Assembly (NCBI GenBank): GCA_039806925.1
Contig: JBDHQG010000001.1
Location: 1-42,652, forward strand
DNA from: Limisphaerales bacterium
GTDB taxonomy: Bacteria > Verrucomicrobiota > Verrucomicrobiia > Limisphaerales > JADJPG01
Direction: 5' to 3'
DNA length: 42,652 nt
The translations under genes were made by a program, and so were the position numbers. Under the pieces are notes generated by a model. It had not been told where the DNA came from, made no database searches, and worked only from the letters and a program-made list of their open reading frames with translations. Shown one piece after another: positions 19,416 through 34,536 of this stretch; the first letter of the stretch is position 1; every line of letters begins with the position of its first letter.

Positions 19416-21293
19416 TCAGTTCGCCGGAATCACGCGGGAGAAGCAGGCCGTGCCGTCCTTGCGCACGATCACCTCCTGTCCGGCGACCACGAAATCGAGG
19501 AGTAGCTCGCCGGCTTTCGGAGAGTCACTGTCGAACTCGACCTTGCCGCGCGTGCCGCCGGGGACGGTGACAACGTTGAGGGTGGCGCGGACCACGCCGC
19601 CGACCACAAGTTCATAGGAGCCGACATTGACGTCCTCGACTTCAACTTCGAAATCTTCGTCGCCGTTGTCCTTGCGGCGGAACTTCGCCACCGCAGAGGC
19701 ATTCGAGTCCGCGCCGGTGCTGATGAGCGGGAGCTTGATCTCCGCTGGTTGGGCGACGTTGCCGGAGCTCGAGCCGGAGCCGCCGGTGTTTCCAGAGCCG
19801 CCGCCCGGCGCCGAACCATTGCCAAACAGGTGGGAGAAGATCATGTCGCCAGTGGCATTCTTGATCTCGATGAGCTGGCCGCGCGGCTCGAAGTTCATCG
19901 GGAGCTCGCCTTTCGGATTGTCATCGCCGTGCGAGAACTCGATCTCGCCTTCCACGCCACCGACCACCGCCACGGCGTTGATGGTGCCGCGAAGCACGCC
20001 GCCGATGTAGAGCTTGTAGGCGCCGGCGGGCACGTCTTCGATTTCCACGCTGAACTTGCGACGGCCGTTGTCGCGAATCTCGAACTTCGCATCGCCGGAC
20101 GCACCGGGAATCACGCCGGTCTTCGCAAGGTTCTCCTCCAGCTGCGTCGGGGCTTCCGGCGTGACTGGCCCGCCGCTGTTGTTGCCTCCGGTATTGCCGC
20201 CCGTGGAACCGCCCGAGCCGATGACGCCCTCGAAGTAAACCGTGCCATCCTTGCGGATGACAATGCTGGCGCCGGCGGGATCGAACGTCAGCGGCAGTTC
20301 GCCGTCGGGATGATCATCGCCCGCGTTGAATTCGATTTCGCCCTCGGTGCCGCCCGTGGTCGCCACCACGTTGATGGTGCCGACCACGTTGCCGGCGACG
20401 AGGAGTTCATACGCGCCCACGGGCACGTCCTCGATCTCGACGGAGAAGTCCTTGCGGGCGTTCTCACGGATGCGGAGCCTGGCCTTCGCGGTGGCGTTGT
20501 CGTCCGTGCCGGTGGACGGGATGCTGAAGCTCTGGATGCTCGGCGTGGCGACGTTCACATTCTGCGCCTTCGCCAGCAACGTGCCGGTGGCGCGGATGGC
20601 GCCGGCCTGCATCACATCGATGACCTGGCCGCGCGGGTCGAAGTCGAGCAGCAATTCGTTCTTCTTCGGCTCGGTGGAGAACTCGATCCTTGCCTCGCGT
20701 CCGCTCGTGCGCAGATCGCCGCGCTTCACGCCGTTGACGTAGAGCTCGTAGCCCGTGCCGGAGATGCGTTCCACCTGCACCTTGAATTCGCGTTCGCCTT
20801 TCTTGCTCGCGCGATACTCGGCCTTGCCCTTGATGGCGTCGCTGGAGTTCGTCGGCGCGAGGACTACACGTTCATTGACGACGATGCCGGAGGGTTCGCC
20901 GGCACCGGAGATGACGCCTTGCAGGACGGGGGCGATGCCGTCGTGGATTTGGAGCATCTGCCCGCGGGGATCGAAATCGAGCGGGTTCGAGGACGACCTG
21001 GTTTTGAAGGAGAGCCGGCCGCCGCCCTTCTTGTCGGTCGAGAACTCGCCCTCCACCACGCCGCCGATCTGGACAGCGTAGGTCTTGTTCGCGTCGAGCC
21101 TGGACACGATGACGCCGAAGATGGAGCTGGAGGATTTGAGGGAGGAAACAACGCGGCCGGTTGCGTCGGGATCCACCCCGGTGTTTTGCAGGACCAGAGT
21201 GATGGCGGAGGATTCGGAAGCACCGGCGAGAGCCGGCGCGACGAGCATGGCCGCCATCGGCAACGTCCACAGGGTTGAGCTTGGTTTCTTCAT
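19416..21293 (-). CDS. Secreted protein built from five tandem ~120-aa beta-rich repeats (unknown domain family)
   Basis: Signal peptide is MKKPSSTLWTLPMAAMLVAPALAGA. The repeat pattern is A.F.....G...F.VEVEDV..G.Y.L.V.G...G.I.V....G..GEIEF.......L.L.FDPRG..I.I. Gly/Ser/Asn-rich linkers separate the repeats. A sigma-54 promoter lies upstream. Confidence 0.85.
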   Translation of the reverse strand: MKKPSSTLWTLPMAAMLVAPALAGASESSAITLVLQNTGVDPDATGRVVSSLKSSSSIFGVIVSRLDANKTYAVQIGGVVEGEFSTDKKGGGRLSFKTRSSSNPLDFDPRGQMLQIHDGIAPVLQGVISGAGEPSGIVVNERVVLAPTNSSDAIKGKAEYRASKKGEREFKVQVERISGTGYELYVNGVKRGDLRTSGREARIEFSTEPKKNELLLDFDPRGQVIDVMQAGAIRATGTLLAKAQNVNVATPSIQSFSIPSTGTDDNATAKARLRIRENARKDFSVEIEDVPVGAYELLVAGNVVGTINVVATTGGTEGEIEFNAGDDHPDGELPLTFDPAGASIVIRKDGTVYFEGVIGSGGSTGGNTGGNNSGGPVTPEAPTQLEENLAKTGVIPGASGDAKFEIRDNGRRKFSVEIEDVPAGAYKLYIGGVLRGTINAVAVVGGVEGEIEFSHGDDNPKGELPMNFEPRGQLIEIKNATGDMIFSHLFGNGSAPGGGSGNTGGSGSSSGNVAQPAEIKLPLISTGADSNASAVAKFRRKDNGDEDFEVEVEDVNVGSYELVVGGVVRATLNVVTVPGGTRGKVEFDSDSPKAGELLLDFVVAGQEVIVRKDGTACFSRVIPAN

Positions 21294-21372
21294 ATCAGTT
21301 CACATTTTCAAATGGCGGCTCGTGTTACTTCCGCTGCATCACGACCGCCGTGTGATGCACGCAAACCACCTA

Positions 21373-21389
21373 TTGCAGGGCGCGTGCCG
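21373..21389 (-). promoter_or_regulatory. Sigma-54 (-24/-12) promoter for the 5-repeat protein gene
   Basis: The minus strand reads cGGCACgcgccCTGCAa, with the canonical GG-N10-GC spacing. It is about 80 nt upstream of ATG 21293 and divergent from the sigma-54 activator gene. Confidence 0.72.
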
Positions 21390-21439
21390 TCGGCGCGCAG
21401 GGCGAAATTCGCGGATTTCCACGCGGTCTTGTCGGGGCT

Positions 21440-21455
21440 GTTCCGCAGGTGGAAT
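21440..21455. promoter_or_regulatory. Candidate enhancer (UAS) half-perfect palindrome gTTCC-N6-GGAAt
   Basis: gttccgcaggtggaat, 33 bp (about 3 helical turns) from the perfect site at 21473. It is about 85 bp upstream of the inferred minus-strand TSS. Confidence 0.5.
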
Positions 21456-21472
21456 GAGGAGTCGACGCGGGT

Positions 21473-21488
21473 GTTCCGGTGGTGGAAC
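21473..21488. promoter_or_regulatory. Candidate enhancer (UAS) perfect palindrome GTTCC-N6-GGAAC
   Basis: gttccggtggtggaac, about 118 bp upstream of the inferred minus-strand TSS. Confidence 0.62.
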
Positions 21489-21579
21489 GGACAGGCCGCC
21501 GCGGAACAATCAACGGGCCGGGTTTGAGGCGGACAATGAACGAGGATTAGTTTGGAACAGAATCTGCGCGACGATATAC

Positions 21580-23031
21580 ATGATGACGTTGACGATGAAT
21601 GCCGGCTCACAACGAACGAATTCCGCTGCGGCGTTCTCCTGCCTGATGGTGGAGGACGATCCCGCCTTCGCCACCCTGGTCGCGCAGCTCGTGCGCGAGG
21701 AGGGCGGCCAGCCGACTCATTGCAAAAGCATCGCGGAGGCGCGGGCGGCCACCGCGCAACGCCAGTTCGATCTGGTGCTGCTCGACAATCATCTCCCCGA
21801 CGGCAAGGCCTACGATTTCTTTGACCAGATCAGCCGCCGCAACCCCGAGGCGCCGGTCATCATGATCACCGGCCTGCCGGCGTTGGATGAAGCCATCTCG
21901 CTCACGCGAAACGGCCTCTTCGATTATCTCACCAAGCCGGTCGATGCCGACGCCCTGGCCGCCTGCCTGCAACGCGCCCGGGCGCGCCTGGCGCAGCGCG
22001 CCTCCCATGCGGAGGCGGCCGAATGTTTTGGCACCTCGCCGGCGATGCGGCATTTCCTCGACGAAGTGGGGAAGGCGGCGCGGCATCCCTCAGCGACGGT
22101 GCTGTTCACCGGCGAAAGCGGTGCCGGCAAGGACATCGCGGCGCGCACGTTGCACCGGCTCACTTACGGTGAAAAGGCCGCACAGGCGCCTTACGTCGCC
22201 GTCAATGCGGCGGCGGTTCCGGCGGACATGTTCGAGGCCGAGCTCTTCGGCGCGGAACGCGGCGCCTACACCGGCGCGGACAAGAAACGCCCCGGCCTCG
22301 TGGCCGCGGCGCAGGGCGGCACGCTGTTCCTCGATGAAATCGCCGAGGTGCCGCTCCCGCTTCAGGCCAAGCTCCTGCGTTTTTTGGAAGGGCGCGAGTT
22401 TCGTCCGCTGGGCAGCATCGTCAACGAGACGTTCACCGGCCGCTTCGTGACGGCGACCAACAAGTCGCTCCGCGCGGAGGTCCAGGCCGGGCGATTCCGC
22501 GAGGATTTGCTCTACCGCATCGAGGTGTTCGCGCTGGAAGTGCCGCCGTTGCGGAAGCGTCGCGAGGACATTCCGGGTCTGTGCGAATTCCTGCTCGCGC
22601 AGCTGGCGAAGAAATATGGCCGGTCCGCGCCGCTGCTGAAGTCCGATGACCTCGTGGCGTTGCAGGGCTATGATTTTCCAGGGAACGTCCGCGAGTTGAG
22701 AAACATCCTCGAACGCGGACTGCTGCGGACGGAGGAGAAGGATCGCTGGCTGGCGCTCGACACGACGTGGTGGCGCGCGGGCATTGCATCGGCGGCTCCT
22801 GCGGCGACGACGGTCGCATCACCCGCCCCGGCCGACGATGTCCCGCTGCCTCCGGAGCGCGCCGGTCTGACGCCGCTGGAGGCGCAGGAGTACCGCCTGA
22901 TCCGGCGCGGCATGATGGAAGCCCGCGGCGGCATCCGTCGCGCGGCGTCGAAGCTGGGCCTTTCTCCCCAAGCCTTGCTGCGTCGTCTGGAGAAGTGGCC
23001 GGAGCTTCGACCGCCTGCTGCGACGGGTTGA
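21580..23031 (+). CDS. Sigma-54-dependent response regulator (NtrC family: receiver + AAA+ + Fis-type HTH)
   Basis: Receiver domain: MVEDDP ... DLVLLDNHLPDG ... TKP. AAA+ domain: Walker A GESGAGKD, the GAFTGA variant GAYTGA, Walker B LFLDEI and NVRELRN. The C-terminal HTH is IRRAASKLGLSPQALLRRL. ATGs at 21580, 21583 and 21595 are possible; the 165-codon upstream extension is rejected. Confidence 0.93.
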   Translation: MMTLTMNAGSQRTNSAAAFSCLMVEDDPAFATLVAQLVREEGGQPTHCKSIAEARAATAQRQFDLVLLDNHLPDGKAYDFFDQISRRNPEAPVIMITGLPALDEAISLTRNGLFDYLTKPVDADALAACLQRARARLAQRASHAEAAECFGTSPAMRHFLDEVGKAARHPSATVLFTGESGAGKDIAARTLHRLTYGEKAAQAPYVAVNAAAVPADMFEAELFGAERGAYTGADKKRPGLVAAAQGGTLFLDEIAEVPLPLQAKLLRFLEGREFRPLGSIVNETFTGRFVTATNKSLRAEVQAGRFREDLLYRIEVFALEVPPLRKRREDIPGLCEFLLAQLAKKYGRSAPLLKSDDLVALQGYDFPGNVRELRNILERGLLRTEEKDRWLALDTTWWRAGIASAAPAATTVASPAPADDVPLPPERAGLTPLEAQEYRLIRRGMMEARGGIRRAASKLGLSPQALLRRLEKWPELRPPAATG

Positions 23032-23035
23032 GATT

Positions 23036-23051
23036 GTTCCGCATCCGGAAC
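23036..23051. promoter_or_regulatory. Candidate enhancer (UAS) perfect palindrome GTTCC-N6-GGAAC
   Basis: gttccgcatccggaac, beginning 5 nt after the activator stop codon and about 76 bp upstream of the -24 element at 23112. Confidence 0.65.
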
Positions 23052-23054
23052 AGT

Positions 23055-23070
23055 GTTCCGGCGCAGGAAC
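23055..23070. promoter_or_regulatory. Candidate enhancer (UAS) perfect palindrome GTTCC-N6-GGAAC
   Basis: gttccggcgcaggaac, 19 bp centre-to-centre from the previous site. An extra GTTCC half-site follows at 23071-23075. Confidence 0.65.
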
Positions 23071-23111
23071 GTTCCATCCGGTTTTCTCCCGCAATGGCCT
23101 GCAAATCGTCG

Positions 23112-23127
23112 TGGCACCGGCGCTGCT
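23112..23127 (+). promoter_or_regulatory. Sigma-54 (-24/-12) promoter for the Ig-domain protein gene
   Basis: TGGCACcggcgCTGCT has an exact -24 TGGCAC, correct spacing and a -12 TGC. It implies a ~300-nt leader containing a repeat hairpin. Confidence 0.75.
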
Positions 23128-23282
23128 TAAGTCGTTCGGAAACGCGACATGCCGGCTGGATTGAGTTACCTTCCGGCGCGTATTTCGTGCAGATGAACCA
23201 TCACAACACCATTGGCCGCGTCACCCTCGCTCCATAACACGCATGGAACCGGGAAGAACATCTACTAAAAGCAGCTTCAACA

Positions 23283-23357
23283 TTCGTAGCCGCCGAGGTG
23301 ACGAGGCGGAGCGGCCTGAGACTCCCAATGGTTCCGCCTCCTCACCTCGGCGGCTAT
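23283..23357. repeat. Family-1 hairpin repeat (TTCGTAGCCGCCG...CGGCGGCTA), copy 1
   Basis: ~24-bp stem tagccgccgaggtgacgaggcgga / tccgcctcctcacctcggcggcta with one mismatch and a 22-nt loop. It lies inside the 5' leader of the 23435 gene. Confidence 0.8.
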
Positions 23358-23434
23358 GTTCAGAACGGAATTGTGAAACCCGTTCCAGGACCGGCGACAC
23401 ACTGATTCGCCGGACGACCGCAGCGCGGTGTTGC

Positions 23435-25147
23435 ATGTGGATTGCGGGCCTGGCGCTGGCGGGCCTGTGGTCCGCCCAGGCGGCGTCGCCGGAACTGACC
23501 GACAATTTCGCCGACCGCCAGCTGCTCACCGATGATTCCGGGCGGATCGACGGCAGCAATGCCGGGGCGACGCGCGAACCGGGCGAGCCCCGGCACGGCG
23601 GCAAGCCGGGCGGACGTTCCGTGTGGGTTTCTTGGCTCGCGCCGGCGGACGGCATCGCCACGTTCTGGACGGATGGCAGCGCCTTCGACACGTTGCTCTC
23701 CGGTTACTACTTCAGCTCCACCAACGACACGACGTTCGACAAGCTGCGCGAAGCGGACCGCAATGACGACGTCTCCGTCGCGGCGGCGCCCTCGAGCTTG
23801 ATCCAGTTCGGCGCGCACGCGGGCGTGCGTTACCACATCGCGGTGGACGGCTTCGCGGGCGCGGCGGGCGACATCCGCCTGCGCTGGGATTTTGTGAACG
23901 CCACCTCGCCGCCGCCGGTGATCGTCCGCGTGCCGGAGGATCAAGCGGCCCGCGAAGGCGATCCCGTCACGCTGGCGGTGGACATGCAGACCTCGCCGAA
24001 TCTGCGGCTGCAATGGCGCTTCAACGGCAATTCGTTCGGTGCGACCGGCCCCACGCTCCTCATCCCCGCGCTGCAATTCACGAACATCGGCCGCTACACG
24101 CTGCGGATCGACCTGGGCGATGTGCGCTTCGAGACCAGGCCCGTCGAGCTGCAAATCAACTCCGACGGCCAGACCAACGCGCTGGCGCAGGACAAGATTC
24201 TCGACGCGTTGAACTCGCCGCTCACGCCGGACGACGGCGGCGGCGGCCTGCGTGCCGCCGGTGCGATGGTGTTCACCGCCGCCGGCGTCGGAGTTTCGCG
24301 CGGCTACAACGGCTCGCAGGTGTTCAACACCACTTACGCCACGGCGGACCCGACGGAACCGGCCCACTGCGGCCTGAACGGCAGCGCCTCCTACTGGTAT
24401 GCCTATCAGCCGCCCGCCGACGGCACGCTAGTGCTCGACACCATCGGCAGCGGCTTCGACACGTTCATCGCGGTTTACACCTTCAACCCTCCATTCACAG
24501 GCTACGCGGATCTCATCCCGCTGACCTGCGATGACAACAGCGCGGGCACGAACGGCGCGGCCTGGCTGGAATTCGCCGCGCCCAGGAACAGACAGTTCCT
24601 TGTCGTGCTCGACGGCATCAATGGCGCGCGCGGCATCGCGCGGTTGAACTACCGCCTCGACACCAACCGCCCGCCCGTCGCCCCGACGCTGGTGCAAGTT
24701 CCCGCCGCCGGCACCGCGGCCACCGGGCTGAACATCACGCTGGCCCCGGCGGTGACGGGCAGCCCGCCGCTGCGCTTCCTCTGGCGCAAGGGCACCCATC
24801 TGCTGGCCGGCGCGACGAACAGTTTTCTGGCGTTGAACAACCTCACGCCGGCCGAGTCCGGCGATTATCGCGTGACGGTTTTCAGCCACGTCGGCCTGCC
24901 GCTGGAAGTGCTCCTGCCGCTCCGCGTTGTGATTCCACCACAGCTTCAATTCGCGCCGCGGACTGATGGGATGAGGGCGTGGTCCTTCCCCGGCGTCGCC
25001 GGGCAACGCTACGTCGTGGAGCAGACCGCCGCGCTGGGAAGCCCGTGGCGTCCATGGACGAACCAATTCATCGGTGACGGATCGCTCATCCTGCTGACGA
25101 ACGACGCGGCAACGCCGGCCACCTTCCTGCGCGTGCGCGTCGAATAG
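23435..25147 (+). CDS. Secreted protein: two pre-peptidase-C-terminal-like modules alternating with two Ig-like modules
   Basis: The ATG at 23435 gives the signal peptide MWIAGLALAGLWSAQA. Two modules carry the motif ..EP.H.G....S.W..W.AP.DG......GS.FDT....Y (GEPRHGGKPGGRSVWVSWLAPADG...FDTLLSGYYF and EPAHCGLNGSASYWYAYQPPADG...FDTFIAVYTF). The two Ig-like modules are PVTLAVDM...LRLQWRFNG and LRFLWRKG...ESGDYRV. The protein ends in FLRVRVE. Confidence 0.8.
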   Translation: MWIAGLALAGLWSAQAASPELTDNFADRQLLTDDSGRIDGSNAGATREPGEPRHGGKPGGRSVWVSWLAPADGIATFWTDGSAFDTLLSGYYFSSTNDTTFDKLREADRNDDVSVAAAPSSLIQFGAHAGVRYHIAVDGFAGAAGDIRLRWDFVNATSPPPVIVRVPEDQAAREGDPVTLAVDMQTSPNLRLQWRFNGNSFGATGPTLLIPALQFTNIGRYTLRIDLGDVRFETRPVELQINSDGQTNALAQDKILDALNSPLTPDDGGGGLRAAGAMVFTAAGVGVSRGYNGSQVFNTTYATADPTEPAHCGLNGSASYWYAYQPPADGTLVLDTIGSGFDTFIAVYTFNPPFTGYADLIPLTCDDNSAGTNGAAWLEFAAPRNRQFLVVLDGINGARGIARLNYRLDTNRPPVAPTLVQVPAAGTAATGLNITLAPAVTGSPPLRFLWRKGTHLLAGATNSFLALNNLTPAESGDYRVTVFSHVGLPLEVLLPLRVVIPPQLQFAPRTDGMRAWSFPGVAGQRYVVEQTAALGSPWRPWTNQFIGDGSLILLTNDAATPATFLRVRVE

Positions 25148-25171
25148 CCGGTGTGTCCGAGCGCGGCGCTT

Positions 25172-25220
25172 ATGCTGTCCGGGAATTCGAGCGGAAGCTT
25201 GTCCCGAAGGGACGGTTGAA
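25172..25220 (-). repeat. Family-2 structured repeat, internally deleted copy (minus orientation)
   Basis: atgctgtccgggaattcgagcggaagcttgtcccgaagggacggttga matches the two ends of copy 31505-31616. The segment between the two GTCCC..GGGAC hairpins is missing. Confidence 0.6.
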
Positions 25221-25243
25221 ACGGTGGTGGCGCGATTCTTCCG

Positions 25244-25360
25244 TCAGCCGTCCCTTCGGGACTCAGCCCGCCTACCGCTTTATTCCCGGCGTTGAAACGC
25301 CGGGCTATTTTCACCAGTCCCTTCCGGGACGCATCTCTCGGGCGAATTGCCGGAAGGCAT
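25244..25360 (+). repeat. Family-2 structured repeat (~115 nt, three hairpins), plus orientation
   Basis: The three hairpins are GTCCC-TTCG-GGAC, CCCGGCG-TTGAAA-CGCCGGG followed by CTATTTT, and GTCCC-TTCC-GGGAC. The element ends ...CGAATTGCC..GCAT. It aligns with 31630-31742 and with the reverse complement of 31505-31616. Confidence 0.8.
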
Positions 25361-25388
25361 CAGACTTTAGCCTGGATATTTCACAGGC

Positions 25389-25468
25389 TTCGTAGCCGCC
25401 GCGGTAACGAGACGGACTGCCGGCCGTGGAATCCCAAAGCCATCCGCCTCCTCGCGTCGGCGGCTACA
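25389..25468. repeat. Family-1 hairpin repeat, copy 2
   Basis: cttcgtagccgccg ... cggcggctac. The left flank atttcacaggcttcgtagccgcc is shared exactly with copy 3 at 31371. Confidence 0.75.
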
Positions 25469-25529
25469 ACATCCAACCGCCTCATTCGTGTTGGTTCGTG
25501 TCCATTCGCAGTTGCATCAGCGCTTCCCT

Positions 25530-25581
25530 AAAAAATAAAACCGGGCGCTGGAGGACACACAGAATTTCATCCAACGCCCGG
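25530..25581 (-). terminator. Orphan intrinsic terminator oriented on the minus strand
   Basis: 12-bp stem ccgggcgctgga (25541-25552) with tccaacgcccgg (25570-25581), one G-U position. On the minus strand it is followed by ttttatttttt (25540-25530). No credible minus-strand CDS lies upstream of it. Confidence 0.5.
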
Positions 25582-25689
25582 CTTCGCCCACACGGGCGAA
25601 GAGTTTGTCGATGAGGTTGGAGGCAGGCCGCGTGCCAGCATCGCATTGCCCGCCGTGGCTCCCGGTTCCGCGCCTTGTTCCGCGCCGCC

Positions 25690-25705
25690 GCTTCCGGCAG
25701 CGGAG
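25690..25705. promoter_or_regulatory. Degenerate UAS-like site cTTCC-N6-GGAGc
   Basis: cttccggcagcggagc, 20 bp centre-to-centre from the perfect site at 25710. It is preceded by two direct GTTCCGCGCC half-sites (25664-25673, 25676-25685). Confidence 0.35.
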
Positions 25706-25709
25706 CAGC

Positions 25710-25725
25710 TGTTCCGCGAGCGGAA
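25710..25725. promoter_or_regulatory. Candidate enhancer (UAS) perfect palindrome GTTCC-N6-GGAAC
   Basis: gttccgcgagcggaac, 55-70 bp upstream of the -24 element at 25780. Confidence 0.62.
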
Positions 25726-25779
25726 CAGCGCCCGCGCGGGCCACCATGAAAACTCCCGGATTTCCGCGTAAAACCACGT

Positions 25780-25795
25780 TGGCAAAGCCGCTGCT
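25780..25795 (+). promoter_or_regulatory. Sigma-54 (-24/-12) promoter for the 4-repeat protein gene
   Basis: TGGCAAagccgCTGCT has correct GG-N10-GC spacing and the same CTGCT -12 element as the promoter at 23112. It is about 80 nt upstream of ATG 25875. Confidence 0.7.
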
Positions 25796-25874
25796 AAAGG
25801 AGGCTCGTCACTCAACGGCCAAGACCCAGCCGCAGTGTCGTGAAACAAAACAAACACCAAAACCAAACACATCT

Positions 25875-27644
25875 ATGAAACCAAACCTCGCCAACCTGGC
25901 CGTGGCTGCCGTCCTGGCCCTCGGCGGCATCTCCGGTGCCGCCGGACGGGAAATCGAAATCCGGCGCGCGACTGAAATCGAAATCGAAACCGAGCACGGC
26001 CGTTACTACCAGCTCCAGCGTTCCACCAATATGGTCGACTGGCAGAACGTCGACGACGCCATCTACGGTCACGGCGGAACAGAGCGGCGCCTGCGCTCGG
26101 CCCGTCCCGACGACAATCCGGGCCGCGAATATTTCCGCGTCGTGATCACGGACGCTCCGACGAACGGCTTCGCGCCCTGGTCGCTCGCGGGTATCACCAT
26201 GGAGTTCGACGACGAACCCGGTGGCGACGTGATGAAGTTCCTGCTCGCGACATCGGGCGTGGACGTTTCCGAAGCGGACTCGGATCCGTTCACCTACACC
26301 TACGCGCGCACCGGCGACAGCGAGGCAAAGGCCGATCTGGTTTACGCCTCGAACAAGATCGACCGGCTGACCTTCGCGTTCACCGGTCCCGGCGTGGGCA
26401 CCTGGTCGCGCGACGAATTTCGCGACGGCAGGCTGAAGGATCACGATGCCGGTCCGTTTCGCATCGTCGGCATTGCCGCTGCGCCGGGCATCAACGCCGC
26501 GGTGAACCCCAACGTCATCATCGCCCCGCCGGTGGCTCCGCCCGCGCCGCCGGCATCGCTGTCCAACCTGGTTTATTACTTCCAGTCCTCCGGCGTACCG
26601 GATCGCTACGATTTTCTGGATGATCGCAACGGGCGCGAAGTCCAGGGCGTGGTGCAGGAAGGTCTGCCGACCAACTCGCTGGTGTACGCCTACAACATCC
26701 TCAACGCGAACACGGCCTCGCTGGTGCTGAGCTTCGGCTACTACGGCATGGGCGGCGATCGCTACGAATGCGATCTGACGTTCACCGACGGCTCTCCCGG
26801 CCACTTCGTGCGCCGTCTCTATCGTCGCGGCGTGTTGAAAGACACCGACAGCGGCGCGTTCAGCCAGAACATGCAGCTCAACTCCGGCGGCGGCTACACG
26901 CCGCCCGCGGGCACGAACTCCCCGAGCCCCTGGCCCCCGGTGGTGACCCCCACCGCCCCGCCGGCTCCGCCCGCGTCGTTGAACGGCCTGACCTACTATG
27001 TCTACACCGCGCAGTATCCGGATCAGTATCGTTTCGTCGCCGGCCACTACGGCTATGCGATGCCTGGCGCGTCAGCGGATTCGGAACTGGAAGTGACCGA
27101 AGGCGGCAACGTTTACATGTATACCTACACGAACCACACCTCGAACACCGCCACGCTGGTCATCACCTACGGCTACTACAACCTCGGCGGCGACCGCGAG
27201 GAATACGACCTCACCTACGTGGACGGCTCCACGGCGACGTTCAACCGCCGCCTCTACCGCGGTGGCACGATTTACACGAACCAGGCCGGCATCTTCAGCA
27301 CGAACTCGGTCCTGCCCTACGCCTACAATCCCGGCGGCTCCACGAACAATCCGCCTGGCGACTACGACTTCGCCATGAGCACCGGCGAGTTTCTGAAATT
27401 CAACAACGCCACGGCGGGCGTGCAGACGGACGACAGCAACCCGACCGACTTCACCTACGTGCTGACCTCGACCGGCCCGGGCACCGCCACGCTCCGCGTC
27501 CAGTTCAAGGCCGACAAGTGGGACGAATACGATCTCACCTACGCCAGCGCGACAAGCGGCTCGTTCCTCCGGCGCCAGTATGATCGAAACGAGCTGAAGG
27601 ACACCGACACCGGCACCTTCACCGCCAAAGCCCCGGCCCAGTGA
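25875..27644 (+). CDS. Secreted protein: small N-terminal beta-sandwich-like module plus four ~110-130-aa repeats (unknown family)
   Basis: The ATG at 25875 gives the signal peptide MKPNLANLAVAAVLALGGISGAAG. The N-terminal module runs YYQLQRSTNMVDW...REYFRVV. The four repeats share F.Y.Y......TA.L.V.......DEYDLT(Y/F).....G.F.RR.Y..G.LKDTD.G.F. PPAPPAS linkers separate them. Confidence 0.82.
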   Translation: MKPNLANLAVAAVLALGGISGAAGREIEIRRATEIEIETEHGRYYQLQRSTNMVDWQNVDDAIYGHGGTERRLRSARPDDNPGREYFRVVITDAPTNGFAPWSLAGITMEFDDEPGGDVMKFLLATSGVDVSEADSDPFTYTYARTGDSEAKADLVYASNKIDRLTFAFTGPGVGTWSRDEFRDGRLKDHDAGPFRIVGIAAAPGINAAVNPNVIIAPPVAPPAPPASLSNLVYYFQSSGVPDRYDFLDDRNGREVQGVVQEGLPTNSLVYAYNILNANTASLVLSFGYYGMGGDRYECDLTFTDGSPGHFVRRLYRRGVLKDTDSGAFSQNMQLNSGGGYTPPAGTNSPSPWPPVVTPTAPPAPPASLNGLTYYVYTAQYPDQYRFVAGHYGYAMPGASADSELEVTEGGNVYMYTYTNHTSNTATLVITYGYYNLGGDREEYDLTYVDGSTATFNRRLYRGGTIYTNQAGIFSTNSVLPYAYNPGGSTNNPPGDYDFAMSTGEFLKFNNATAGVQTDDSNPTDFTYVLTSTGPGTATLRVQFKADKWDEYDLTYASATSGSFLRRQYDRNELKDTDTGTFTAKAPAQ

Positions 27645-27710: not shown

Positions 27711-27896
27711 CCGCACCAACACATGAACATGACCCGCCCTCCACAAACCCGGTCGCCGCAGTGCTTCGCGGCGGGGCGGCGGATTGTTCCCGTTTTTTGG
27801 AGTGAAGCTTCTTTCGGGGCGAGGATTGCCCGACGGCGGGGCGTCGCTCGAAAGTTCGAGGTTCAAACTCCTGCGCCCCTCTGGCACCGTCCTCCC

Positions 27897-30800
27897 GTGC
27901 GCCGGACCAGCCTCGCCATCCTGCTGTTGCTCTTGATCGGAATGGCTGCGCCCGCGCAATCCACCGACACGAACACTCCGGCCAGTCGCGTCGTGGAAGT
28001 CGCGGGCAACGTCGAGTTTCAGGTCTCCGGCCGCGCGGAATGGAGCGCCGCCACCAACGGCCTCGCGCTCAAGCCCGGCGACCGCCTCCGCACCCGCACG
28101 CAAAGCCGCGCTGCCGTCCAGTTCTCCGACCGCAGCGTGCTGCGTCTGAGCGAAAGCACGACGCTCGAGATTCAGCCGCCGCGGCACGCCGAGAAGCGCC
28201 GCTTCCGCCTTCCTTTCGGCTCCATCTTCTTCTTCAACCGCGAGCGTCCGGCCGATGTCGAGTTCGAGACGCCCGTGGTCAGCGGCGCGATTCGCGGCAC
28301 GGAATTTCTTCTCGAAGCCGCCGAGGCCAACGGCGCGACGCGGCTCGCGTTGCTCGATGGCGCGGTGGAATTGTCCGCCGCCGACGCCACTGTCTCCATG
28401 CACAGCGGCGAGCAGGCGCGCGTCGAGCCAGGTCAGGCACCAGTGAAAAGCCCGCTCCTCGAAGCCCGCAGCCTGATTCAATGGGCGCTCTATTATCCCG
28501 CCGTCGCGAATCCAGATGACCTCGCGCTCGCTCGTGACGATCTCCCTGCGCTGAACGAAGCGTTGAGCGCATATCGCTCCGGCGATCTGCTGAAGGCCCA
28601 CGATCTGTTGCGCGCCGTTCCGCCCGGCAACCCGGCGCGCGAATTGTTCCGCGCCGCCGTCGAACTGTCCGTTGGAGCAGTCGATAGCGCGGAGGCGCGT
28701 CTTGCCGGCGCTCCGGCGAACGCTTCGGTGGCGCGTGCCCTGCGGGAACTGATCGCCGTCGTGCGCGGCACGACGCTGACGAATGAATTGGCGGAGCCCG
28801 GCCCGTCGGCCAGCGAATGGCTCGCGCGTTCCTACACGCTGCAATCGCGATTCCAGCTCCACGCCGCGCGCGAGACTGCGGAGCGCGCCGTCGCTCTTGC
28901 GCCGAACTTCGGCTTCGCGCTGGCCCGGCTCGCCGAGTTGCAAATGATGCTCGAAGAACGCGCCGCTGCTGCCGCAACAGTCCGCGATGCGCTACGAGTG
29001 TCGCCGCGGCTTGCCTCTGCGCACGCTCTTCTCGGCTTCCTGCGCCTCGAAGAGAACGATCCAAAGTCAGCGCTACGTTCGTTCGACGACGCCATTGCCA
29101 TCGATGCCGCGCTCGGCAACGCCTGGCTCGGTCGCGGCCTCGCGTTGTTGCGCCTGGGCGAGCGGGATGAGGCGCTGCGCTCGTTCCAGACGGCGGCGGC
29201 CCTGGAACCGCGTCGCGCCGTGATGCGCGGATATCTGGCGAAGGCGTTCAGCGCGGCGGGCGAAACGAAACTGGCTGAGAAGGATCTGCGGCTCGCCAAG
29301 GAGCTCGATCCGGGCGATCCCACCGCGTGGCTCTATTCGGCGCTGCATCAATGGCAGCAAAACTACCCGAACGTCGCCGTCCGCGAACTCGAGCGTTCGA
29401 CCGAGCTGAACGACAACCGCCGGCTGTTCCGCTCGCGACTTGGCCTGGATCGCGACCGCTCCGTGCGCAGCGCGAATCTCGCCGCGGTGTATGCCGATGC
29501 TGGATTGCAGGAAGTCAGCCTGCGCTCCGCGGCCCGTGCGGTGAACGAGGACTACGCGAATTTCTCCAGCCACCTCTTCCTCGCGAACAGCTATCAGGCG
29601 CTGGAGAATCCGAACCGCTTCGACCTCCGCTACGAGAGCGCGCGCTTCAGCGAATTGCTCGTCGCAAACCTGCTCGCGCCCGCCGGCGCCGGAAATCTTT
29701 CGCAGCTGCTCTCGCAGCAGGAACACTTGCAGTTCTTTGATCCGCGTCCGGTCGGTGTCAGCACGTTCACGCAGTATCGCAGCTCGGGGGACTGGCAGCA
29801 GCTCGCGACGCTGTTCGGGTCGCTCGACGGATTCAGCTACGCGCTCGACACCGCGTATCACAACCAGCACGGGCAGGAGATCAACGACTGGAGCGAACGC
29901 CTCGACGTCTCGCTTCAGATGAAGCAGCACGTGAACGAGCGCGATGACCTCTACTTTCAGGCCAGCTTCAGCAACGGCGACGCAGGCGACGTCTCGCGGC
30001 ACTATGATCCGAACGAAGCGAGCCGGGTTCGTCGCGTGAGCGAGGAACAGGCGCCGAATCTCTTCGCGGGCTGGCATCGCGCGTGGTCGCCCGCGAATCA
30101 TACCCTTCTGCTCGTCTCGCGGCTGACGGATTCCTTCGAGCTGCGCGATGACGGCGTGGGCGTTTTCCATCTTCAGCCCGATGTGGCGAACGCGACGCGT
30201 ATCTCAACGCCAGCCGGCGGTTTCGGTGCGCGGCTGAACAGCGACTTCATGCTCTACTCCGCGGAGCTCCAGCAGATCTGGCAGAGTGAAGCGCACACGG
30301 TGGTCGCCGGCGGGCGCATTCAGTCGGGCGAAGTGGAATCTGACTCCGTCCTCACGCGCACGTTGACCGGCGTGATTTCTTCGGACCAAACCGACGAACC
30401 GCTTCGCCGCGCCAATGGTTATCTCTACTACCACTGGCAGACTCTCGAACCGCTCCAGCTCATCGGCGGCTTCAGCTACGACCATCTCACTTATCCGCGA
30501 AACTCCGACTTCCTGCCATTGGCCGCCGGAGATGAATCGACCGACCTGCTCGCGCCGAAGGCTGGTTTTGTTCTCGCACCCTGGCGTGGCGGCACCGTCC
30601 GCGGCGCCTATACGCGTTCGCTCGGCGGATTGTTCTTCGACAACAGCGTGCGTCTGGAGCCGACGCAGGTCGCGGGATTCAATCAGGCGTTTCGCAGTCT
30701 CATTCCGGAATCGAGCGCGGGTCTGCTGCCGGGCGCGACGTTCGACACGGCGAACCTCAGCTACGATCAGCGGGTTGGTTCGGGAACCTTCTTCGGTGTG

Positions 30801-31364
30801 GAAACCGAGTGGCTCCACTCGGACGGCGACCGGACGATCGGCGTGACCACGGGCGTATTGCCGACGCCGTTCGCGGGCGCGGTGAGCAGCACGCGGCAGA
30901 AGCTGGAGTTCCGCGAGCGCAACGTCTCGGCCTACGCCGCGCAGTTGCTGGGCGATGGCTTCTCAATCGGGGCGCGCTATCGACTGAGTGAGGCCCAGCT
31001 GGAAACACGTTTGCCGGAACTGCCGAACACGACAATCGATCTCGACCTCGCGGAGCAGAGCGAACGTTCGCTGCTGCATCAGGTCGCGCTGTCGTTGAAC
31101 TACCAGCACACGAGCGGCTTCTTCGGCCAATGGGAATCGGCGTGGTATTACCAGCACAACTCCGGCTACACGCCGGCGCGTCCGGGCGATGATTTCTTCC
31201 AGCACAACGTCTGGCTTGGCTACCGCTTCCCGCGCCGGCACGCGGAGATTCGCGCGGGCCTCTTGAATCTGGCGGACACGGATTACCGGTTGAACCCGCT
31301 CAATTCCTACAACGCCCTGCCGCGCGGCCGCACCGCCGTGGTGAGCCTGCGGTTGAATTTCTAG
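27897..31364 (+). CDS. Large envelope protein: signal peptide + FecR domain + TPR repeats + C-terminal outer-membrane beta-barrel-like domain
   Basis: The GTG at 27897 gives VRRTSLAILLLLLIGMAAPAQS. FecR-like block: AVQFSDRSVLRLSESTTLEI ... ETPVVSGAIRGTEFLL ... LALLDGAVEL. TPR-like block: ALRSFDDAIAIDAALGNAWLGRGLALLRLGERDEALRSFQTAAALEPR ... The last ~570 aa have alternating beta-strand patterns ending in VVSLRLNF (terminal Phe). ATG 27723 is the alternative, less likely start. Confidence 0.85.
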   Translation: MRRTSLAILLLLLIGMAAPAQSTDTNTPASRVVEVAGNVEFQVSGRAEWSAATNGLALKPGDRLRTRTQSRAAVQFSDRSVLRLSESTTLEIQPPRHAEKRRFRLPFGSIFFFNRERPADVEFETPVVSGAIRGTEFLLEAAEANGATRLALLDGAVELSAADATVSMHSGEQARVEPGQAPVKSPLLEARSLIQWALYYPAVANPDDLALARDDLPALNEALSAYRSGDLLKAHDLLRAVPPGNPARELFRAAVELSVGAVDSAEARLAGAPANASVARALRELIAVVRGTTLTNELAEPGPSASEWLARSYTLQSRFQLHAARETAERAVALAPNFGFALARLAELQMMLEERAAAAATVRDALRVSPRLASAHALLGFLRLEENDPKSALRSFDDAIAIDAALGNAWLGRGLALLRLGERDEALRSFQTAAALEPRRAVMRGYLAKAFSAAGETKLAEKDLRLAKELDPGDPTAWLYSALHQWQQNYPNVAVRELERSTELNDNRRLFRSRLGLDRDRSVRSANLAAVYADAGLQEVSLRSAARAVNEDYANFSSHLFLANSYQALENPNRFDLRYESARFSELLVANLLAPAGAGNLSQLLSQQEHLQFFDPRPVGVSTFTQYRSSGDWQQLATLFGSLDGFSYALDTAYHNQHGQEINDWSERLDVSLQMKQHVNERDDLYFQASFSNGDAGDVSRHYDPNEASRVRRVSEEQAPNLFAGWHRAWSPANHTLLLVSRLTDSFELRDDGVGVFHLQPDVANATRISTPAGGFGARLNSDFMLYSAELQQIWQSEAHTVVAGGRIQSGEVESDSVLTRTLTGVISSDQTDEPLRRANGYLYYHWQTLEPLQLIGGFSYDHLTYPRNSDFLPLAAGDESTDLLAPKAGFVLAPWRGGTVRGAYTRSLGGLFFDNSVRLEPTQVAGFNQAFRSLIPESSAGLLPGATFDTANLSYDQRVGSGTFFGVETEWLHSDGDRTIGVTTGVLPTPFAGAVSSTRQKLEFRERNVSAYAAQLLGDGFSIGARYRLSEAQLETRLPELPNTTIDLDLAEQSERSLLHQVALSLNYQHTSGFFGQWESAWYYQHNSGYTPARPGDDFFQHNVWLGYRFPRRHAEIRAGLLNLADTDYRLNPLNSYNALPRGRTAVVSLRLNF

Positions 31365-31381
31365 CCTGCCATTTCACAGGC

Positions 31382-31455
31382 TTCGTAGCCGCCGACGCGC
31401 GGAGGCGGATGGACTGGGCGGTAATGAAATTCCGCCTCCTCACGTCGGCGGCTAC
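31382..31455. repeat. Family-1 hairpin repeat, copy 3
   Basis: ttcgtagccgccgacgcgcggaggcgga ... tccgcctcctcacgtcggcggctac. It is flanked by the inverted pair atttcacagg (31371) / ccgtgaaat (31480s). Confidence 0.78.
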
Positions 31456-31504
31456 AAAGGGTCGCGAATTCATGCGGGCCGTGAAATATCCCAGTATAGG
31501 ACTA

Positions 31505-31616
31505 ATGCCGTTCAGGAATTCGAGCGCGTTCGTCCCGGAGGGACAGCGTGAGAATAGCCCGGCGTTTCAACGCCGGGAACGAAGCCGAAGGCCGAAAGTC
31601 CCGAAGGGACGGCTGA
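31505..31616 (-). repeat. Family-2 structured repeat, minus orientation
   Basis: Its reverse complement aligns block-by-block with 25244-25360 (GTCCCTTCGGGAC, CCCGGCGTTGAAACGCCGGGCTATT, GTCCCTCCGGGAC, CGAATTCC, GCAT). Confidence 0.8.
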
Positions 31617-31629
31617 AGGGGTTGAAGGT

Positions 31630-31742
31630 TCAGTCGTCCCTTTGGGACTCGACCCTGCTGGTTCGTCCACCCAGCGTTGAAACGCTGGGCTATTTTTCGA
31701 TTGTCCCTCCGGGACACGCTCCGCCGAATTCCCGAAAAGCAT
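31630..31742 (+). repeat. Family-2 structured repeat, plus orientation; with 31505-31616 it forms a ~238-bp imperfect palindrome
   Basis: It has the same blocks, and the middle hairpin reads CCCAGCG-TTGAAA-CGCTGGG. That is a G-to-A change paired with a C-to-T change relative to the other copies (compensatory). Confidence 0.8.
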
Positions 31743-31797: not shown

Positions 31798-31818
31798 GAT
31801 ATCGTGCTGACGAACCGA

Positions 31819-34536
31819 ATGTCGGACCGCCCTTCACGCCGCTCCAAGTTCATCGCCAGCGCCGCGCTGGGAATCCTTTGCGCGCTGGCCGGCTCGGCGC
31901 TGCTGGATTCCACCCGGCCCCGTGGTTCCGCCCTCACGCGGGCGAGCTATGACAGTTACTTCGGGCTGCTGGGATTGAACCACCCGCCTCCCACCAACAG
32001 CCCGGTGCTGGTGGTGTACCTCGATCTCGAATCGCACCTGAGCCAGCACCAGGATCCCAACCAGCCCTGGCCGCGGGAACTGTACGCGCAATTGATCCGG
32101 CGTTTGAAAGGCGCGGGCGCGCGCGTGGTCGTGTTCGATGTCGTCTTCGACAGCGTGGGCACCAATGCCGCGGGGAACCGTGCGTTGCGCGAGGCCATTG
32201 CCGCGCATGGCGGCGTCGTTCTCGCGGGTGAACTGCGCGCGTTGAGCAGCGACGGCGGGCGGGCGGAATGGGGACGCGCGGTGAAAGTCATCGCGCCGGT
32301 GGACGAGTTTCGTGGCGCCGCGGCCGGCTGGGGCCTGGGCGAGGTGGCGACGGATGACGACTTTGGAGTCCGCCGCTATTACACCGCAGCCGCGGTCTCC
32401 GGCGAACCAGTCTCGAACCTGACGCTGGCCGCCGCCCGGGTTTACGGGTCGGATGCTCCTTCGCCGGCTGGTGAGACGGCGCGCGCGCGCTGGCTGCATT
32501 ACTACGGCCCGCCGTTCGCATTGCCGCATCGCAGTTTCAGCCAGGTGCTCACCGCGGGTGACGTGAGCGACGCGGAGTTCCGCGACAGGATTGTCTTCGT
32601 CGGCGCGCGACCGGTGGCCGGATTGTTCAAGGAACGCCGCGACGAGTTCCGCAGCCCGTTCAGCTTCTGGAACGAGAAGGATCTGTTCATGCCGGGCGTC
32701 GAAGTTCATGCCACGGAGATGTTGAATCTCCTGCGCAACGACTGGCTGCGCCTGCCCGGAGAACGCCCGCTCGAACTGGCGTTCGGGCTGACGGGCTTGT
32801 TGCTCGGCGCCGGATTGATCTGGCTGCGACCGATTCCTGCAACGGCGTTCGCGGCGACGAGCGTCGGGCTGACGATTGCGACCGCTGCGATTCTCTTCCG
32901 CCAGTCCCACGTCTGGTTTCCGTGGCTCATCGTCGCGGCGGTTCAGGCTCCGCTGGCGCTGGGTGGTTCGGTGCTCTTCAACTCCATCGAATGGTATCTC
33001 ACGCGCCGTCGGCTCGAAGCCGCGAAACGCGTCGCCGACGCGCGCATCCGCGAGCAGGCGGCGTTGATCGAGAAGGCGCACGACGCGATTCTGGTGCGCG
33101 AGCTGGATGGGAAAACGTCCTACGCGAATCCCAGCGCCGAACGGCTCTTCGGCTGGACCGCGAGCGAGTTGCAGAACGGCGCGGTGAACGAGTTGTTCAC
33201 GGACGCGGCGGCCACTGAGGCCCGCCGTGTGGCGACGGAGCGCGGCGAGTGGAACGGCGAGTTGCGGCTTCGCGCGAAGTCCGGCGCCGGGCTGACGTTG
33301 GAGAGTCGCTGGACGTTGTTGCGCGATGATCTCGGCCAGCCGAAGGGATTGCTAATTATCAGCTCCGACGTGACGGAGAAGAAGCAGCTCGAAGCCGAGT
33401 CGCTGCGCATGCAACGCATGGAAGCGGTGGGCGCGCTGGCGGGCGGAATGGCGCATGACTTGAACAACGCGCTCGCGCCGATTCTCATGGGCACACAGCT
33501 CCTTCGTCGCGATTCGAAGGATGAAAACACCAAACGCGTGCTGTCGCTCATGGAATCGAGCACGCGGCGCGGCGCGGACATGGTGCGGCAGGTGTTGCTC
33601 TTCGCGCGTGGGAAGCAGGGCGAGTTCGAGCGGCTGGAGGCGCGACCGCTGGTGAAAGAGATGGAGAAGCTCGCGCGCGACACGTTTCCGCTGAACATCA
33701 AGGTCAGCGCGCATGTCGCGGACGATCTCTGGCCGGTGCGAGGCAACGCGACGCAATTGCATCAAGTGCTGTTGAACCTGTGCGTCAACGCGCGCGACGC
33801 GATGGTGGAAGGCGGTTCGCTGTCGATCGCGGCGGACAACGTGACGTTGGATGCGGAGGCGGCGCGGGCGATTCCGGACGGGCGGGCGGGAGAATTTGTC
33901 GTGCTCATGGTCACAGATACCGGCTCGGGAATGCCGCCCGGGGTGCGGGCGAAAGTTTTTGAACCATTCTTCACCACGAAGGCGGAAGGGAAGGGAACCG
34001 GACTCGGGCTTTCAACGAGCGCGCGCATCGTGAAGGCGCACGACGGTTTCATTTCCGTCCAAAGCCAGCCCGGCGAGGGCACGACGTTCGAGGTTTACCT
34101 TCCGCGTTTCTCGCGGGAGTTGGAGCCGAAGACAGAAGCTTCCGTCGAGGAACTTCAACGCGGGAGCGGTCAGCTTATCCTCGTTGCCGACGATGATGAA
34201 TCCGTGCGCGAACTGCTGCGCCGCAGCCTGGAGGAATACGGTTATCGCGCCGTCACGGCGGCGAACGGCGCGGAGGCGGTTTCGTTGTGCCGGGAAAGCC
34301 GGGAACCGGTCGCGCTGGTGGTGAGCGATCAATCGATGCCGTTGCTGGAAGGTTCAAAGGCGGTGGCGGCAATTCAGGCGGCTCGACCCGATCTGCCGGC
34401 GATCCTGTTGTGCGATGAACCGGCGATCATGAAACAACCCGGGGAGCTTCCGCCCGCCCGGGTCGAATATCTGCCGAAGCCGATCGAACTGCACCGGTTG
34501 CTGGAAACCGTTTCGCGGATGCTGAAGCAACGGTGA
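31819..34536 (+). CDS. Hybrid sensor histidine kinase: CHASE2 periplasmic sensor + TM helices + PAS + HisKA/HATPase + C-terminal receiver
   Basis: CHASE2-like N-terminal region (VVVYLDLES..., VVVFDVVFD, VVLAGEL) followed by 3-4 TM helices. PAS: IEKAHDAILVRELDGKTSYANPSAERLFGW. H-box: GGMAHDLNNAL. G-boxes: DTGSGM and GTGLGLS. Receiver: LILVADDDESVRELL ... LVVSDQSMP. The GTG at 31804 is an alternative start. Confidence 0.9.
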   Translation: MSDRPSRRSKFIASAALGILCALAGSALLDSTRPRGSALTRASYDSYFGLLGLNHPPPTNSPVLVVYLDLESHLSQHQDPNQPWPRELYAQLIRRLKGAGARVVVFDVVFDSVGTNAAGNRALREAIAAHGGVVLAGELRALSSDGGRAEWGRAVKVIAPVDEFRGAAAGWGLGEVATDDDFGVRRYYTAAAVSGEPVSNLTLAAARVYGSDAPSPAGETARARWLHYYGPPFALPHRSFSQVLTAGDVSDAEFRDRIVFVGARPVAGLFKERRDEFRSPFSFWNEKDLFMPGVEVHATEMLNLLRNDWLRLPGERPLELAFGLTGLLLGAGLIWLRPIPATAFAATSVGLTIATAAILFRQSHVWFPWLIVAAVQAPLALGGSVLFNSIEWYLTRRRLEAAKRVADARIREQAALIEKAHDAILVRELDGKTSYANPSAERLFGWTASELQNGAVNELFTDAAATEARRVATERGEWNGELRLRAKSGAGLTLESRWTLLRDDLGQPKGLLIISSDVTEKKQLEAESLRMQRMEAVGALAGGMAHDLNNALAPILMGTQLLRRDSKDENTKRVLSLMESSTRRGADMVRQVLLFARGKQGEFERLEARPLVKEMEKLARDTFPLNIKVSAHVADDLWPVRGNATQLHQVLLNLCVNARDAMVEGGSLSIAADNVTLDAEAARAIPDGRAGEFVVLMVTDTGSGMPPGVRAKVFEPFFTTKAEGKGTGLGLSTSARIVKAHDGFISVQSQPGEGTTFEVYLPRFSRELEPKTEASVEELQRGSGQLILVADDDESVRELLRRSLEEYGYRAVTAANGAEAVSLCRESREPVALVVSDQSMPLLEGSKAVAAIQAARPDLPAILLCDEPAIMKQPGELPPARVEYLPKPIELHRLLETVSRMLKQR

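Follow-up and report, generated by a model that had tools for sequence, protein, structure and literature searches.

Phased palindromes accompany three putative sigma-54 promoters around an NtrC-type activator gene in a Limisphaerales bacterium

A 42,652-nucleotide (nt) stretch of DNA from a Limisphaerales bacterium (contig JBDHQG010000001.1, positions 1 to 42,652 of the forward strand; hereafter the window) carries three promoter-like sequences, P1, P2 and P3, around a gene for an NtrC-type response regulator (the activator). An 18-bp palindrome, YGTTCCG-N4-CGGAACR, was found in one or two copies 57-99 nt upstream of each of the three. The joint occurrence of promoter and palindrome is the decisive statistic; the motifs alone are modestly above chance. 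The region very probably represents a sigma-54-dependent regulon under two-component control, in a verrucomicrobial genome that is Pedosphaerales/Limisphaerales-like. A preliminary description of this DNA had read the three sequences as sigma-54 promoters, and this reading was supported by every sequence-level feature that could be tested. It needs four additions, namely the enhancer sites, a fourth promoter (P4) divergent from P3, a possible promoter of the activator gene, and the attribution of the long P2 leader to an insertion. The promoters and the activator gene are as follows.

21389-21374, minus strand: P1, predicted sigma-54 promoter CGGCACGCGCCCTGCA (CGGCAC-N5-CTGCA), predicted start near 21363.
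21580..23031, plus strand: activator, NtrC-type response regulator/enhancer-binding protein with REC, AAA+ sigma-54 interaction and HTH_8 domains and a GAYTGA loop.
23112..23127, plus strand: P2, predicted sigma-54 promoter TGGCACCGGCGCTGCT (TGGCAC-N5-CTGCT), predicted start near 23138.
25780..25795, plus strand: P3, predicted sigma-54 promoter TGGCAAAGCCGCTGCT, followed by AAAGG (TGGCAA-N5-CTGCT), predicted start near 25806.

The motifs were read where they had first been placed (CGGCACGCGCCCTGCAA on the minus strand at 21389-21373, and TGGCACCGGCGCTGCT and TGGCAAAGCCGCTGCT on the plus strand at 23112-23127 and 25780-25795), and all three carry the -24 and -12 elements of the TGGCAC-N5-TTGCW consensus with the exact GG-N10-GC spacing that had been claimed. 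All are intergenic and point in the same direction as the gene that follows. The proposed distances of about 70, 300 and 70 nt were reproduced, since the predicted starts lie ~70 nt from the ATG of g1 (21293), ~300 nt from that of g2 (23435) and ~69 nt from that of g3 (25875). The three translations each begin with a signal-peptide-like sequence, consistent with the proposal that the targets are secreted proteins, and the activator gene lies between P1 and P2 and encodes the REC, Sigma54_activat and HTH_8 domains, as described. For comparison, loci of activator orthologs with 52-88% protein identity were collected from metagenome-assembled genomes labelled Verrucomicrobia, Pedosphaera or Limisphaerales (each locus is denoted by L and a number). 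The CTGCT form of the -12 box had been called unusual; 64% of 53 related promoters have C there, and the form is therefore not unusual within the regulon.

Position-weight-matrix scoring of the window, which had been suggested as a check, was carried out over ~85,000 positions on both strands. A generic sigma-54 matrix ranked P3 first, P2 second and P1 sixth, and a clade matrix trained on 46 promoters of other loci, with the window excluded, ranked P3 first, P2 second and P1 fourth. Generic-matrix sites of at least 12.5 bits were modestly enriched (6 in the window vs. 1.86 in first-order Markov simulations), and the bare core GGCA-N7-TGC was not enriched (11 matches vs. 9.4 expected). Moreover, similarly scoring generic-matrix matches lie inside genes, at 28855(-), antisense within g4, and at 11708(+), in a TetR gene and without a palindrome; both were judged unlikely to be promoters. 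These values would suit the explanation that, in DNA rich in GC, the three motifs fit a short and degenerate consensus by chance and that g1, g2 and g3 use the housekeeping sigma factor. We regard this as extremely improbable. Promoter matches preceded at 40-130 nt by an exact GTTCC-N6-GGAAC palindrome numbered 4 in the window, whereas 200 simulated windows gave none, and a scan of the three spacers found no sigma-70-like promoter. Both elements are also conserved over dozens of loci with variable spacers and stand at helically phased distances from each other, as described below.

The palindromes form three putative enhancers, listed here without strand.

21440..21488: putative P1 enhancer, GTTCCGCAGGTGGAAT (21440-21455) and GTTCCGGTGGTGGAAC (21473-21488), 33 bp apart, 66 and 99 nt from P1.
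23036..23070: putative P2 enhancer, GTTCCGCATCCGGAAC (23036-23051) and GTTCCGGCGCAGGAAC (23055-23070), 19 bp apart, 76 and 57 nt from P2.
25691..25726: putative P3/P4 enhancer, CTTCCGGCAGCGGAGC (25691-25706, two mismatches) and GTTCCGCGAGCGGAAC (25711-25726), centred exactly midway between P3 and P4, 69 and 89 nt from each.

Exact GTTCC-N6-GGAAC copies occur 4 times in the 42.6-kb window (21473, 23036, 23055 and 25711), compared with 0.065 expected from simulation, and all 4 lie within the three spacers, upstream of the promoters. One-mismatch copies were found at 21440, beside P1, and at three sites outside the three spacers, and the copy with two mismatches at 25691 stands beside P3. At the level of sequence, the palindromes thus have the character of upstream enhancer sites of sigma-54 promoters. 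The extended consensus YGTTCCG-N4-CGGAACR was derived from 65 sites, in which the inner G/C and outer Y/R are conserved even though they lay outside the selection. The paired geometry recurs in related loci: the P1 pair with identical spacing in L101 and L104, equivalents of the P2 pair (78/59) in L001, L101 and L102, and the 88-89/68-69 geometry of the P3/P4 enhancer in L001, L004 and L101.

The arrangement of promoter and palindrome adjoins the orthologous activator in ~35 Verrucomicrobiota (Pedosphaerales/Limisphaerales) loci. The activator belongs to a conserved module, the other members of which are the secreted Ig-domain protein (g2), the FecR-TPR protein (g4) and a CHASE2-PAS hybrid histidine kinase. 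In the majority of these loci, a palindrome and then TGGCA-N6-YTGCT follow the activator gene and recur before the FecR-TPR gene, with P2 kept downstream of the activator gene and a P3-type promoter directly in front of the FecR-TPR gene. The locus L101 (85% identity) has the gene order of the window and contains P1, P2 and P3 with their palindrome pairs at the same spacings, with different bases in the spacers. When the spacer between g1 and the activator was aligned for five close relatives, the conserved blocks were the palindrome half-sites, the promoter block CGACGGCACGC-N3-YTGCAATAG and a leader hairpin; the promoter block is invariant in the five relatives and the spacer bases vary. Promoters nearly identical to P3 were found in L001, L004, L017, L101, L105 and L107. 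Furthermore, 53 non-identical promoters gave the consensus TGGCA-N6-YTGCTWARG, in which GG and GC are invariant and the spacer is variable, and TGCT-AAAG is conserved after the -12 element with its AAAG tail outside the selection matrix. The -24 and -12 elements are therefore conserved at orthologous positions.

Palindrome-to-promoter distances cluster at 47, 57-59, 66-69, 76-80, 88-91, 99-100, 108-112 and 121 nt. Because these classes lie ~10.6 bp apart (n = 42 pairs; best period 10.6 bp, R = 0.82, compared with a maximum R of 0.53 for random distances), the spacing indicates helical phasing, as a face-of-helix constraint predicts for enhancer-dependent promoters. Between loci, the distances differ by whole helical turns. 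The phasing was reproduced on loci added afterwards (R = 0.86 at 10.5 bp for 19 pairs), and 8 further distances fell into the same classes. As a separate observation, P1 and P3 have a short block in common between enhancer and promoter (21405-21423, AAATTCGCGGATTTCCACG, and 25750-25768, AAACTCCCGGATTTCCGCG), which contains the near-palindrome GGAAATCC and might serve for additional binding or for bending of the DNA.

The activator has the NtrC-family domain layout, with Pfam matches to Sigma54_activat (1e-53), Response_reg (6e-19) and HTH_8 (5e-05), and its translation contains the Walker A sequence GESGAGKD and the Walker B sequence LFLDE. The loop that contacts sigma-54 is present as GAYTGA in the window and in 22 of 26 orthologs, and as GAFTGA in the other 4. 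The Phe-to-Tyr form is a conservative natural variant, and PspF F85Y reportedly retains activity. In the four GAFTGA loci (L009, L016, L019 and L025), all enhancer-coupled promoters have TTGC at -12, and in GAYTGA loci most promoters have CTGC, which suggests a possible co-variation of the sigma-54 contact loop with the -12 region in what are very few lineages.

It is probable, judging from the sequences, that the adjacent activator binds the palindromes. Alternatively, the sigma-54 promoters could be real and the palindromes bound by another regulator, either a repressor or an enhancer-binding protein encoded elsewhere, with the adjacent activator acting at other places. The specificity of HTH_8 is not predictable from sequence, and the genome probably encodes many enhancer-binding proteins, given that 807 activator homologs were found in public data at E <= 1e-100. 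Against this stands the specificity of the palindrome, which was counted 47 times in 404 kb of orthologous activator loci and a single time in the 608 kb that flank unrelated enhancer-binding proteins, being essentially absent from the loci of the latter. It accompanies activator orthologs whatever gene follows, whether for an Ig protein, a FecR-TPR protein, a small secreted protein, a prepilin-type protein or a glycosyltransferase, and its dyad geometry resembles that of NtrC sites. Binding by another regulator is accordingly considered improbable.

The activator gene may itself have an autoregulatory sigma-54 promoter, located as follows.

21553..21568, plus strand: possible weak sigma-54 promoter of the activator gene, TGGAACAGAATCTGCG (tentative), 27 nt upstream of the activator ATG.

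This site lies 80 nt from the palindrome at 21473, in phase, and five relatives all retain its GG and GC. It scored 10.0 with the generic matrix (rank 8) and scores 12.1 in L001 and L102. Since the predicted start coincides with the annotated ATG, either the start codon of the activator or the promoter call is uncertain.

Several points weigh against a sigma-54-dependent regulon controlled by the activator. P1 has C instead of T as its first base and ranks only sixth with the generic and fourth with the clade matrix. The generic matrix only approximates the published consensus, and the training sites of the clade matrix were picked by it, so that the two matrices are not fully independent. Kinship among related loci inflates the phasing statistics, which contain fewer independent observations than their counts. 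The activator loop is GAYTGA instead of the canonical GAFTGA. The kinase is a hybrid and no Hpt protein was identified, leaving the phosphorelay to the activator unexplained, and P2 may drive a damaged gene, as the 5' end of g2 is disrupted in the window. In addition, rpoN was not found in the window, and the RpoN-box peptide was absent from the 1.26 Mb of sequence that was searched. Possession of RpoN is reported to be frequent in Verrucomicrobia (PMC3372290), and rpoN is presumed to be present in this genome.

The genes and leader elements under P1, P2 and P3 are listed below.

19416..21293, minus strand: g1, secreted 625-aa protein with ~100-aa repeats and signal peptide MKKPSSTLWTLPMAAMLVAPALAGA, predicted target of P1.
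21336..21358, minus strand: leader hairpin of g1, GCATCAC-N9-GTGATGC, the conserved leader block of the five close relatives.
23193..25147, plus strand: g2, secreted Ig-domain protein (Pfam Ig_3, 1.6e-10), gene body from ATG 23435, in frame with ATG 23243.
25285..25331, plus strand: hairpin and U-run after g2 (from a terminator scan), a sub-threshold copy of the Rfam Acido-Lenti-1 motif (31.9 bits vs. a gathering score of 37), likely the g2 terminator.
25875-27644, plus strand: g3, secreted repeat protein downstream of P3.
27723-31364, plus strand: g4, FecR-TPR protein downstream of P3 (Pfam, synteny).
31804-34536, plus strand: g5, CHASE2-PAS hybrid histidine kinase downstream of P3 (Pfam, synteny).

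Searches of Pfam, NCBIfam and PDB gave no match for g1 or for g3; g1 orthologs are divergent from the activator in L001, L101 and L104. The ancestral start of g2 appears at ATG 23193 (MNHHNT..., cf. MIECNT... in L101), ~54 nt from the predicted P2 start. The ancestral frame meets a stop codon at 23235, and ~190 nt that include a repeat hairpin separate it from the signal-peptide region. P2 therefore lies ~300 nt from the present g2 ATG because the ancestral start was cut off by the stop codon and the inserted repeat hairpin (23283-23356).

We propose that g5, the CHASE2 hybrid kinase, detects an extracytoplasmic cue, with the periplasmic FecR-TPR protein g4 as a probable partner, and controls the phosphorylation of the NtrC-type activator (21580-23031). 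Activator dimers would bind YGTTCCG-N4-CGGAACR, present singly or as pairs separated by two or three helical turns, which lies 57-99 nt upstream of each promoter and always on the same helical face. The bound activators would form an AAA+ ring that, via the GAYTGA loop, remodels sigma-54 RNA polymerase at TGGCA-N6-YTGC. By this means, g1 (from P1), g2 (from P2) and g3-g4 (from P3) would be switched on, all of them with exported products, and the FecR-TPR sensor component encoded by g4 would close a feedback loop on the sensor. The divergent P4 would also produce a structured RNA of ~80 nt.

The proposed system resembles NtrC/NtrB and the glnAp2-type promoters of enteric bacteria in the layout of the activator (REC, AAA+, Fis-type HTH; NCBIfam ntrC, 2.6e-90), in the -24 GG and -12 GC elements, and in paired dyad sites ~60-120 bp upstream with a face-of-helix dependence that is here implied by the phasing. 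However, the activator's score of 303 bits falls far short of the 559-bit cut-off for an NtrC equivalog, and the window has the dyad GTTCCG-N4-CGGAAC, the GAYTGA loop, a CHASE2 hybrid kinase with a FecR-TPR sensor, and exported repeat proteins rather than nitrogen assimilation genes as targets. The PrsK/PrsR/PrsT system (XrtA/PEP-CTERM) likewise combines a sensor kinase, an NtrC-family regulator and a large TPR protein with exported proteins. In contrast to that system, g1-g3 have no PEP-CTERM tails and the window contains no exosortase; the three matches to the NCBIfam models are weak and far below the cut-offs (248 vs. 503, 50 vs. 312 and 75 vs. 300 bits). The 'BiofilmReg' operon of Burkholderia encodes a FecR-domain protein, a CHASE2 histidine kinase and a response regulator (PMC5192318), and in the window, too, a periplasmic FecR-domain protein is encoded beside a CHASE2-PAS histidine kinase and a response regulator. 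The module in the window is not of the Burkholderia type, in which a sigma-70 activator of the OmpR/CreB type serves as regulator and LysM is found on the FecR protein (PMC5192318), whereas the window has a sigma-54 enhancer-binding protein, a FecR protein with TPR repeats and a hybrid kinase with a receiver domain.

In some related loci, the same enhancer and promoter precede other cargo. In L021 (4477(-)/4608(+)), the cargo is a protein with prepilin-type N-terminal methylation; in L012 (2027-3184), two small secreted proteins are followed by an RNA-like element; and in L117 (9457-9520), the two elements stand 47 nt apart upstream of a glycosyltransferase and ABC exporter cluster. To our knowledge, transcriptional regulation in Verrucomicrobiota has hardly been studied experimentally, and we know of no signal for CHASE2 and FecR sensors. 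The regulon is concrete and testable through its promoter (TGGCA-N6-YTGCTWARG), its enhancer (YGTTCCG-N4-CGGAACR) and the strict helical phasing between them, and it reveals a widespread signalling module that combines a CHASE2 hybrid kinase, a FecR-TPR protein and an enhancer-binding protein. The understanding of how sigma-54 works is left unchanged. The switch is well constructed but of an ordinary bacterial kind, and the phylum, which lives in soil and freshwater, has received little study. Sigma-54 has been proposed to control the cell exterior (PMC3162934), and the exported Ig-like and repeat targets, together with the glycosyltransferase/exporter cluster of L117, fit that role.

The most novel element of the regulon is a candidate regulated small RNA, predicted to be transcribed from P4.

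25637-25622, minus strand: P4, sigma-54-like promoter TGGCACGCGGCCTGCC, divergent from P3, predicted start near 25611.
25611-25530, minus strand: candidate small RNA of ~80 nt, with hairpin 1 (25601-25582), hairpin 2 (25581-25541) and a U-run (25540-25530).

P4 scored 12.7 with the generic matrix (rank 5) and is weaker with the clade matrix, the base after TGC being C, not T. The candidate RNA has a minimum free energy of -40.2 kcal/mol (z = -5.06). A first covariance model, built from the window and L004, matched L110 (E = 1.7e-10), and a second model matched L112 (E = 6e-24), whose copy is nearly identical to that of L110. The homologs all lie on the minus strand (L004:11400-11480, L110:12941-13021 and L112:11433-11513), and L004 has the same P4/palindrome/P3 arrangement as the window together with a homologous RNA sequence. 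L110 and L112 share this arrangement. Covariance-model searches of 48 loci gave no copies other than those in the window, L004, L110, L112 and L012. A metagenome scan with the RNA core CGAAGC-N1-2-GGGCGTTGG-N6-24-GTGTGT returned 20 stretches, all of which were chance or coding matches (e.g. in DNA methyltransferase genes).

Each minus-strand copy is preceded by a GG-N10-GC site, which stands 28-50 nt ahead of hairpin 1 and at a distance of 78 or 69/89 nt from a shared palindrome. In the four-sequence alignment, which was fitted to the model and contains few sequences, so that it is supportive but not conclusive, 98.6% of cells are paired, 7 pairs show double changes, and no shuffle reaches the observed covariation score. 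The hairpin-2 loop YUGUGUGU is kept in all copies. In L004, L110 and L112, the P3-type leaders contain CACACA motifs complementary to the loop (UCACACACAG), and the g2 leader of the window contains GACACAC. Duplex energies between the loop and the leaders of P1, P2 and P3 were no better than with shuffled leaders (z -1.1 to +1.1), and the idea of an RNA target consequently rests on short complementary motifs seen by eye. We tentatively suggest, with some doubt, that P4 and the two-hairpin RNA represent an undescribed family of sigma-54- and enhancer-dependent small RNAs in Verrucomicrobiota, which would share a symmetric enhancer with a divergent mRNA promoter and pair its GU-rich loop with CA-rich leaders or loops. 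If true, such pairing would create a feed-forward loop inside the regulon, on the model of GcvB.

P4 and the hairpins could equally be no small RNA gene at all but a chance reverse-strand match beside a spacer element with a structure of its own (a terminator or repeat, for instance), and this explanation is a serious one, to which we give somewhat less than even credence. The g2-g3 spacer carries at least 3 other repeat or hairpin families, the element is missing from the closest relatives L001 and L101, and promoters of the P4 type, in which TGC is followed by G or C, receive low scores from the clade matrix. A clear U-run is present in the window copy and lacking in the L110, L112 and L004 copies. 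Moreover, the copy in L012 lies in sense orientation at the end of the sigma-54-driven operon of two small secreted proteins, like a terminator, and the predicted pairing of loop and leader fails to exceed that with shuffled leaders. A chance match is less easily reconciled with the promoter-like site, which in each of the four minus-strand copies, from three lineages, is correctly spaced and stands in phase with the enhancer at 69/89 or 78 nt, with the retention of the RNA structure through double compensatory changes, or with the single copy of the element in the window.

The Qrr1-4, GlmY, CrcZ and NrsZ systems are sigma-54-dependent. Small RNAs driven by enhancer-binding proteins include LuxO-Qrr1-4, GlrK/GlrR-GlmY, CbrA/CbrB-CrcZ and NtrB/NtrC-NrsZ (PMC7602753). 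Like these, the candidate RNA is short and structured, and it has its own -24/-12 promoter with upstream sites for a two-component enhancer-binding protein beside signalling genes. It differs in belonging to another phylum and in having an enhancer that it shares symmetrically with a divergent mRNA promoter. No Rfam match overlaps 25530-25637 even at E <= 1, which places the candidate outside the Rfam families, including Qrr, GlmY and CrcZ; it may still work like them.

A further promoter-like site, CGGCACCGATGGTGCT followed by AAGG at 2213-2228(+), is the third-best match to the clade matrix (17.0) and lies in the spacer upstream of a gene for an 895-aa protein with a spermidine-synthase domain (2478-5165). 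Because no GTTCC palindrome was found near this site, it may be a sigma-54 promoter served by a different activator.

The intergenic regions also contain repeated hairpins. A long hairpin, TTCACAGGCTTCGTAGCCGCCG...CGGCGGCTAC, occurs in three copies, at 23283-23356 (P2 leader), 25380-25467 (g2-g3 spacer) and 31373-31458 (g4-kinase spacer), and looks like a repetitive extragenic palindromic (REP) or miniature inverted-repeat transposable element (MITE)-like intergenic repeat. The Acido-Lenti-1 motif was described from Acidobacteria and Lentisphaerae. Copies of it (RF01687) were found at 31670-31716(+) with 37.6 bits, at 31531-31577(-) with 36.9 bits and at 25285-25331(+) with 31.9 bits, and in this genome the motif resembles a dispersed intergenic repeat or terminator in its behaviour. 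These copies are accompanied by a second hairpin family, GTCCCGAAGGGACGG...CCGTCCCTTCGGGAC, at 25201-25262 and 31598-31648.

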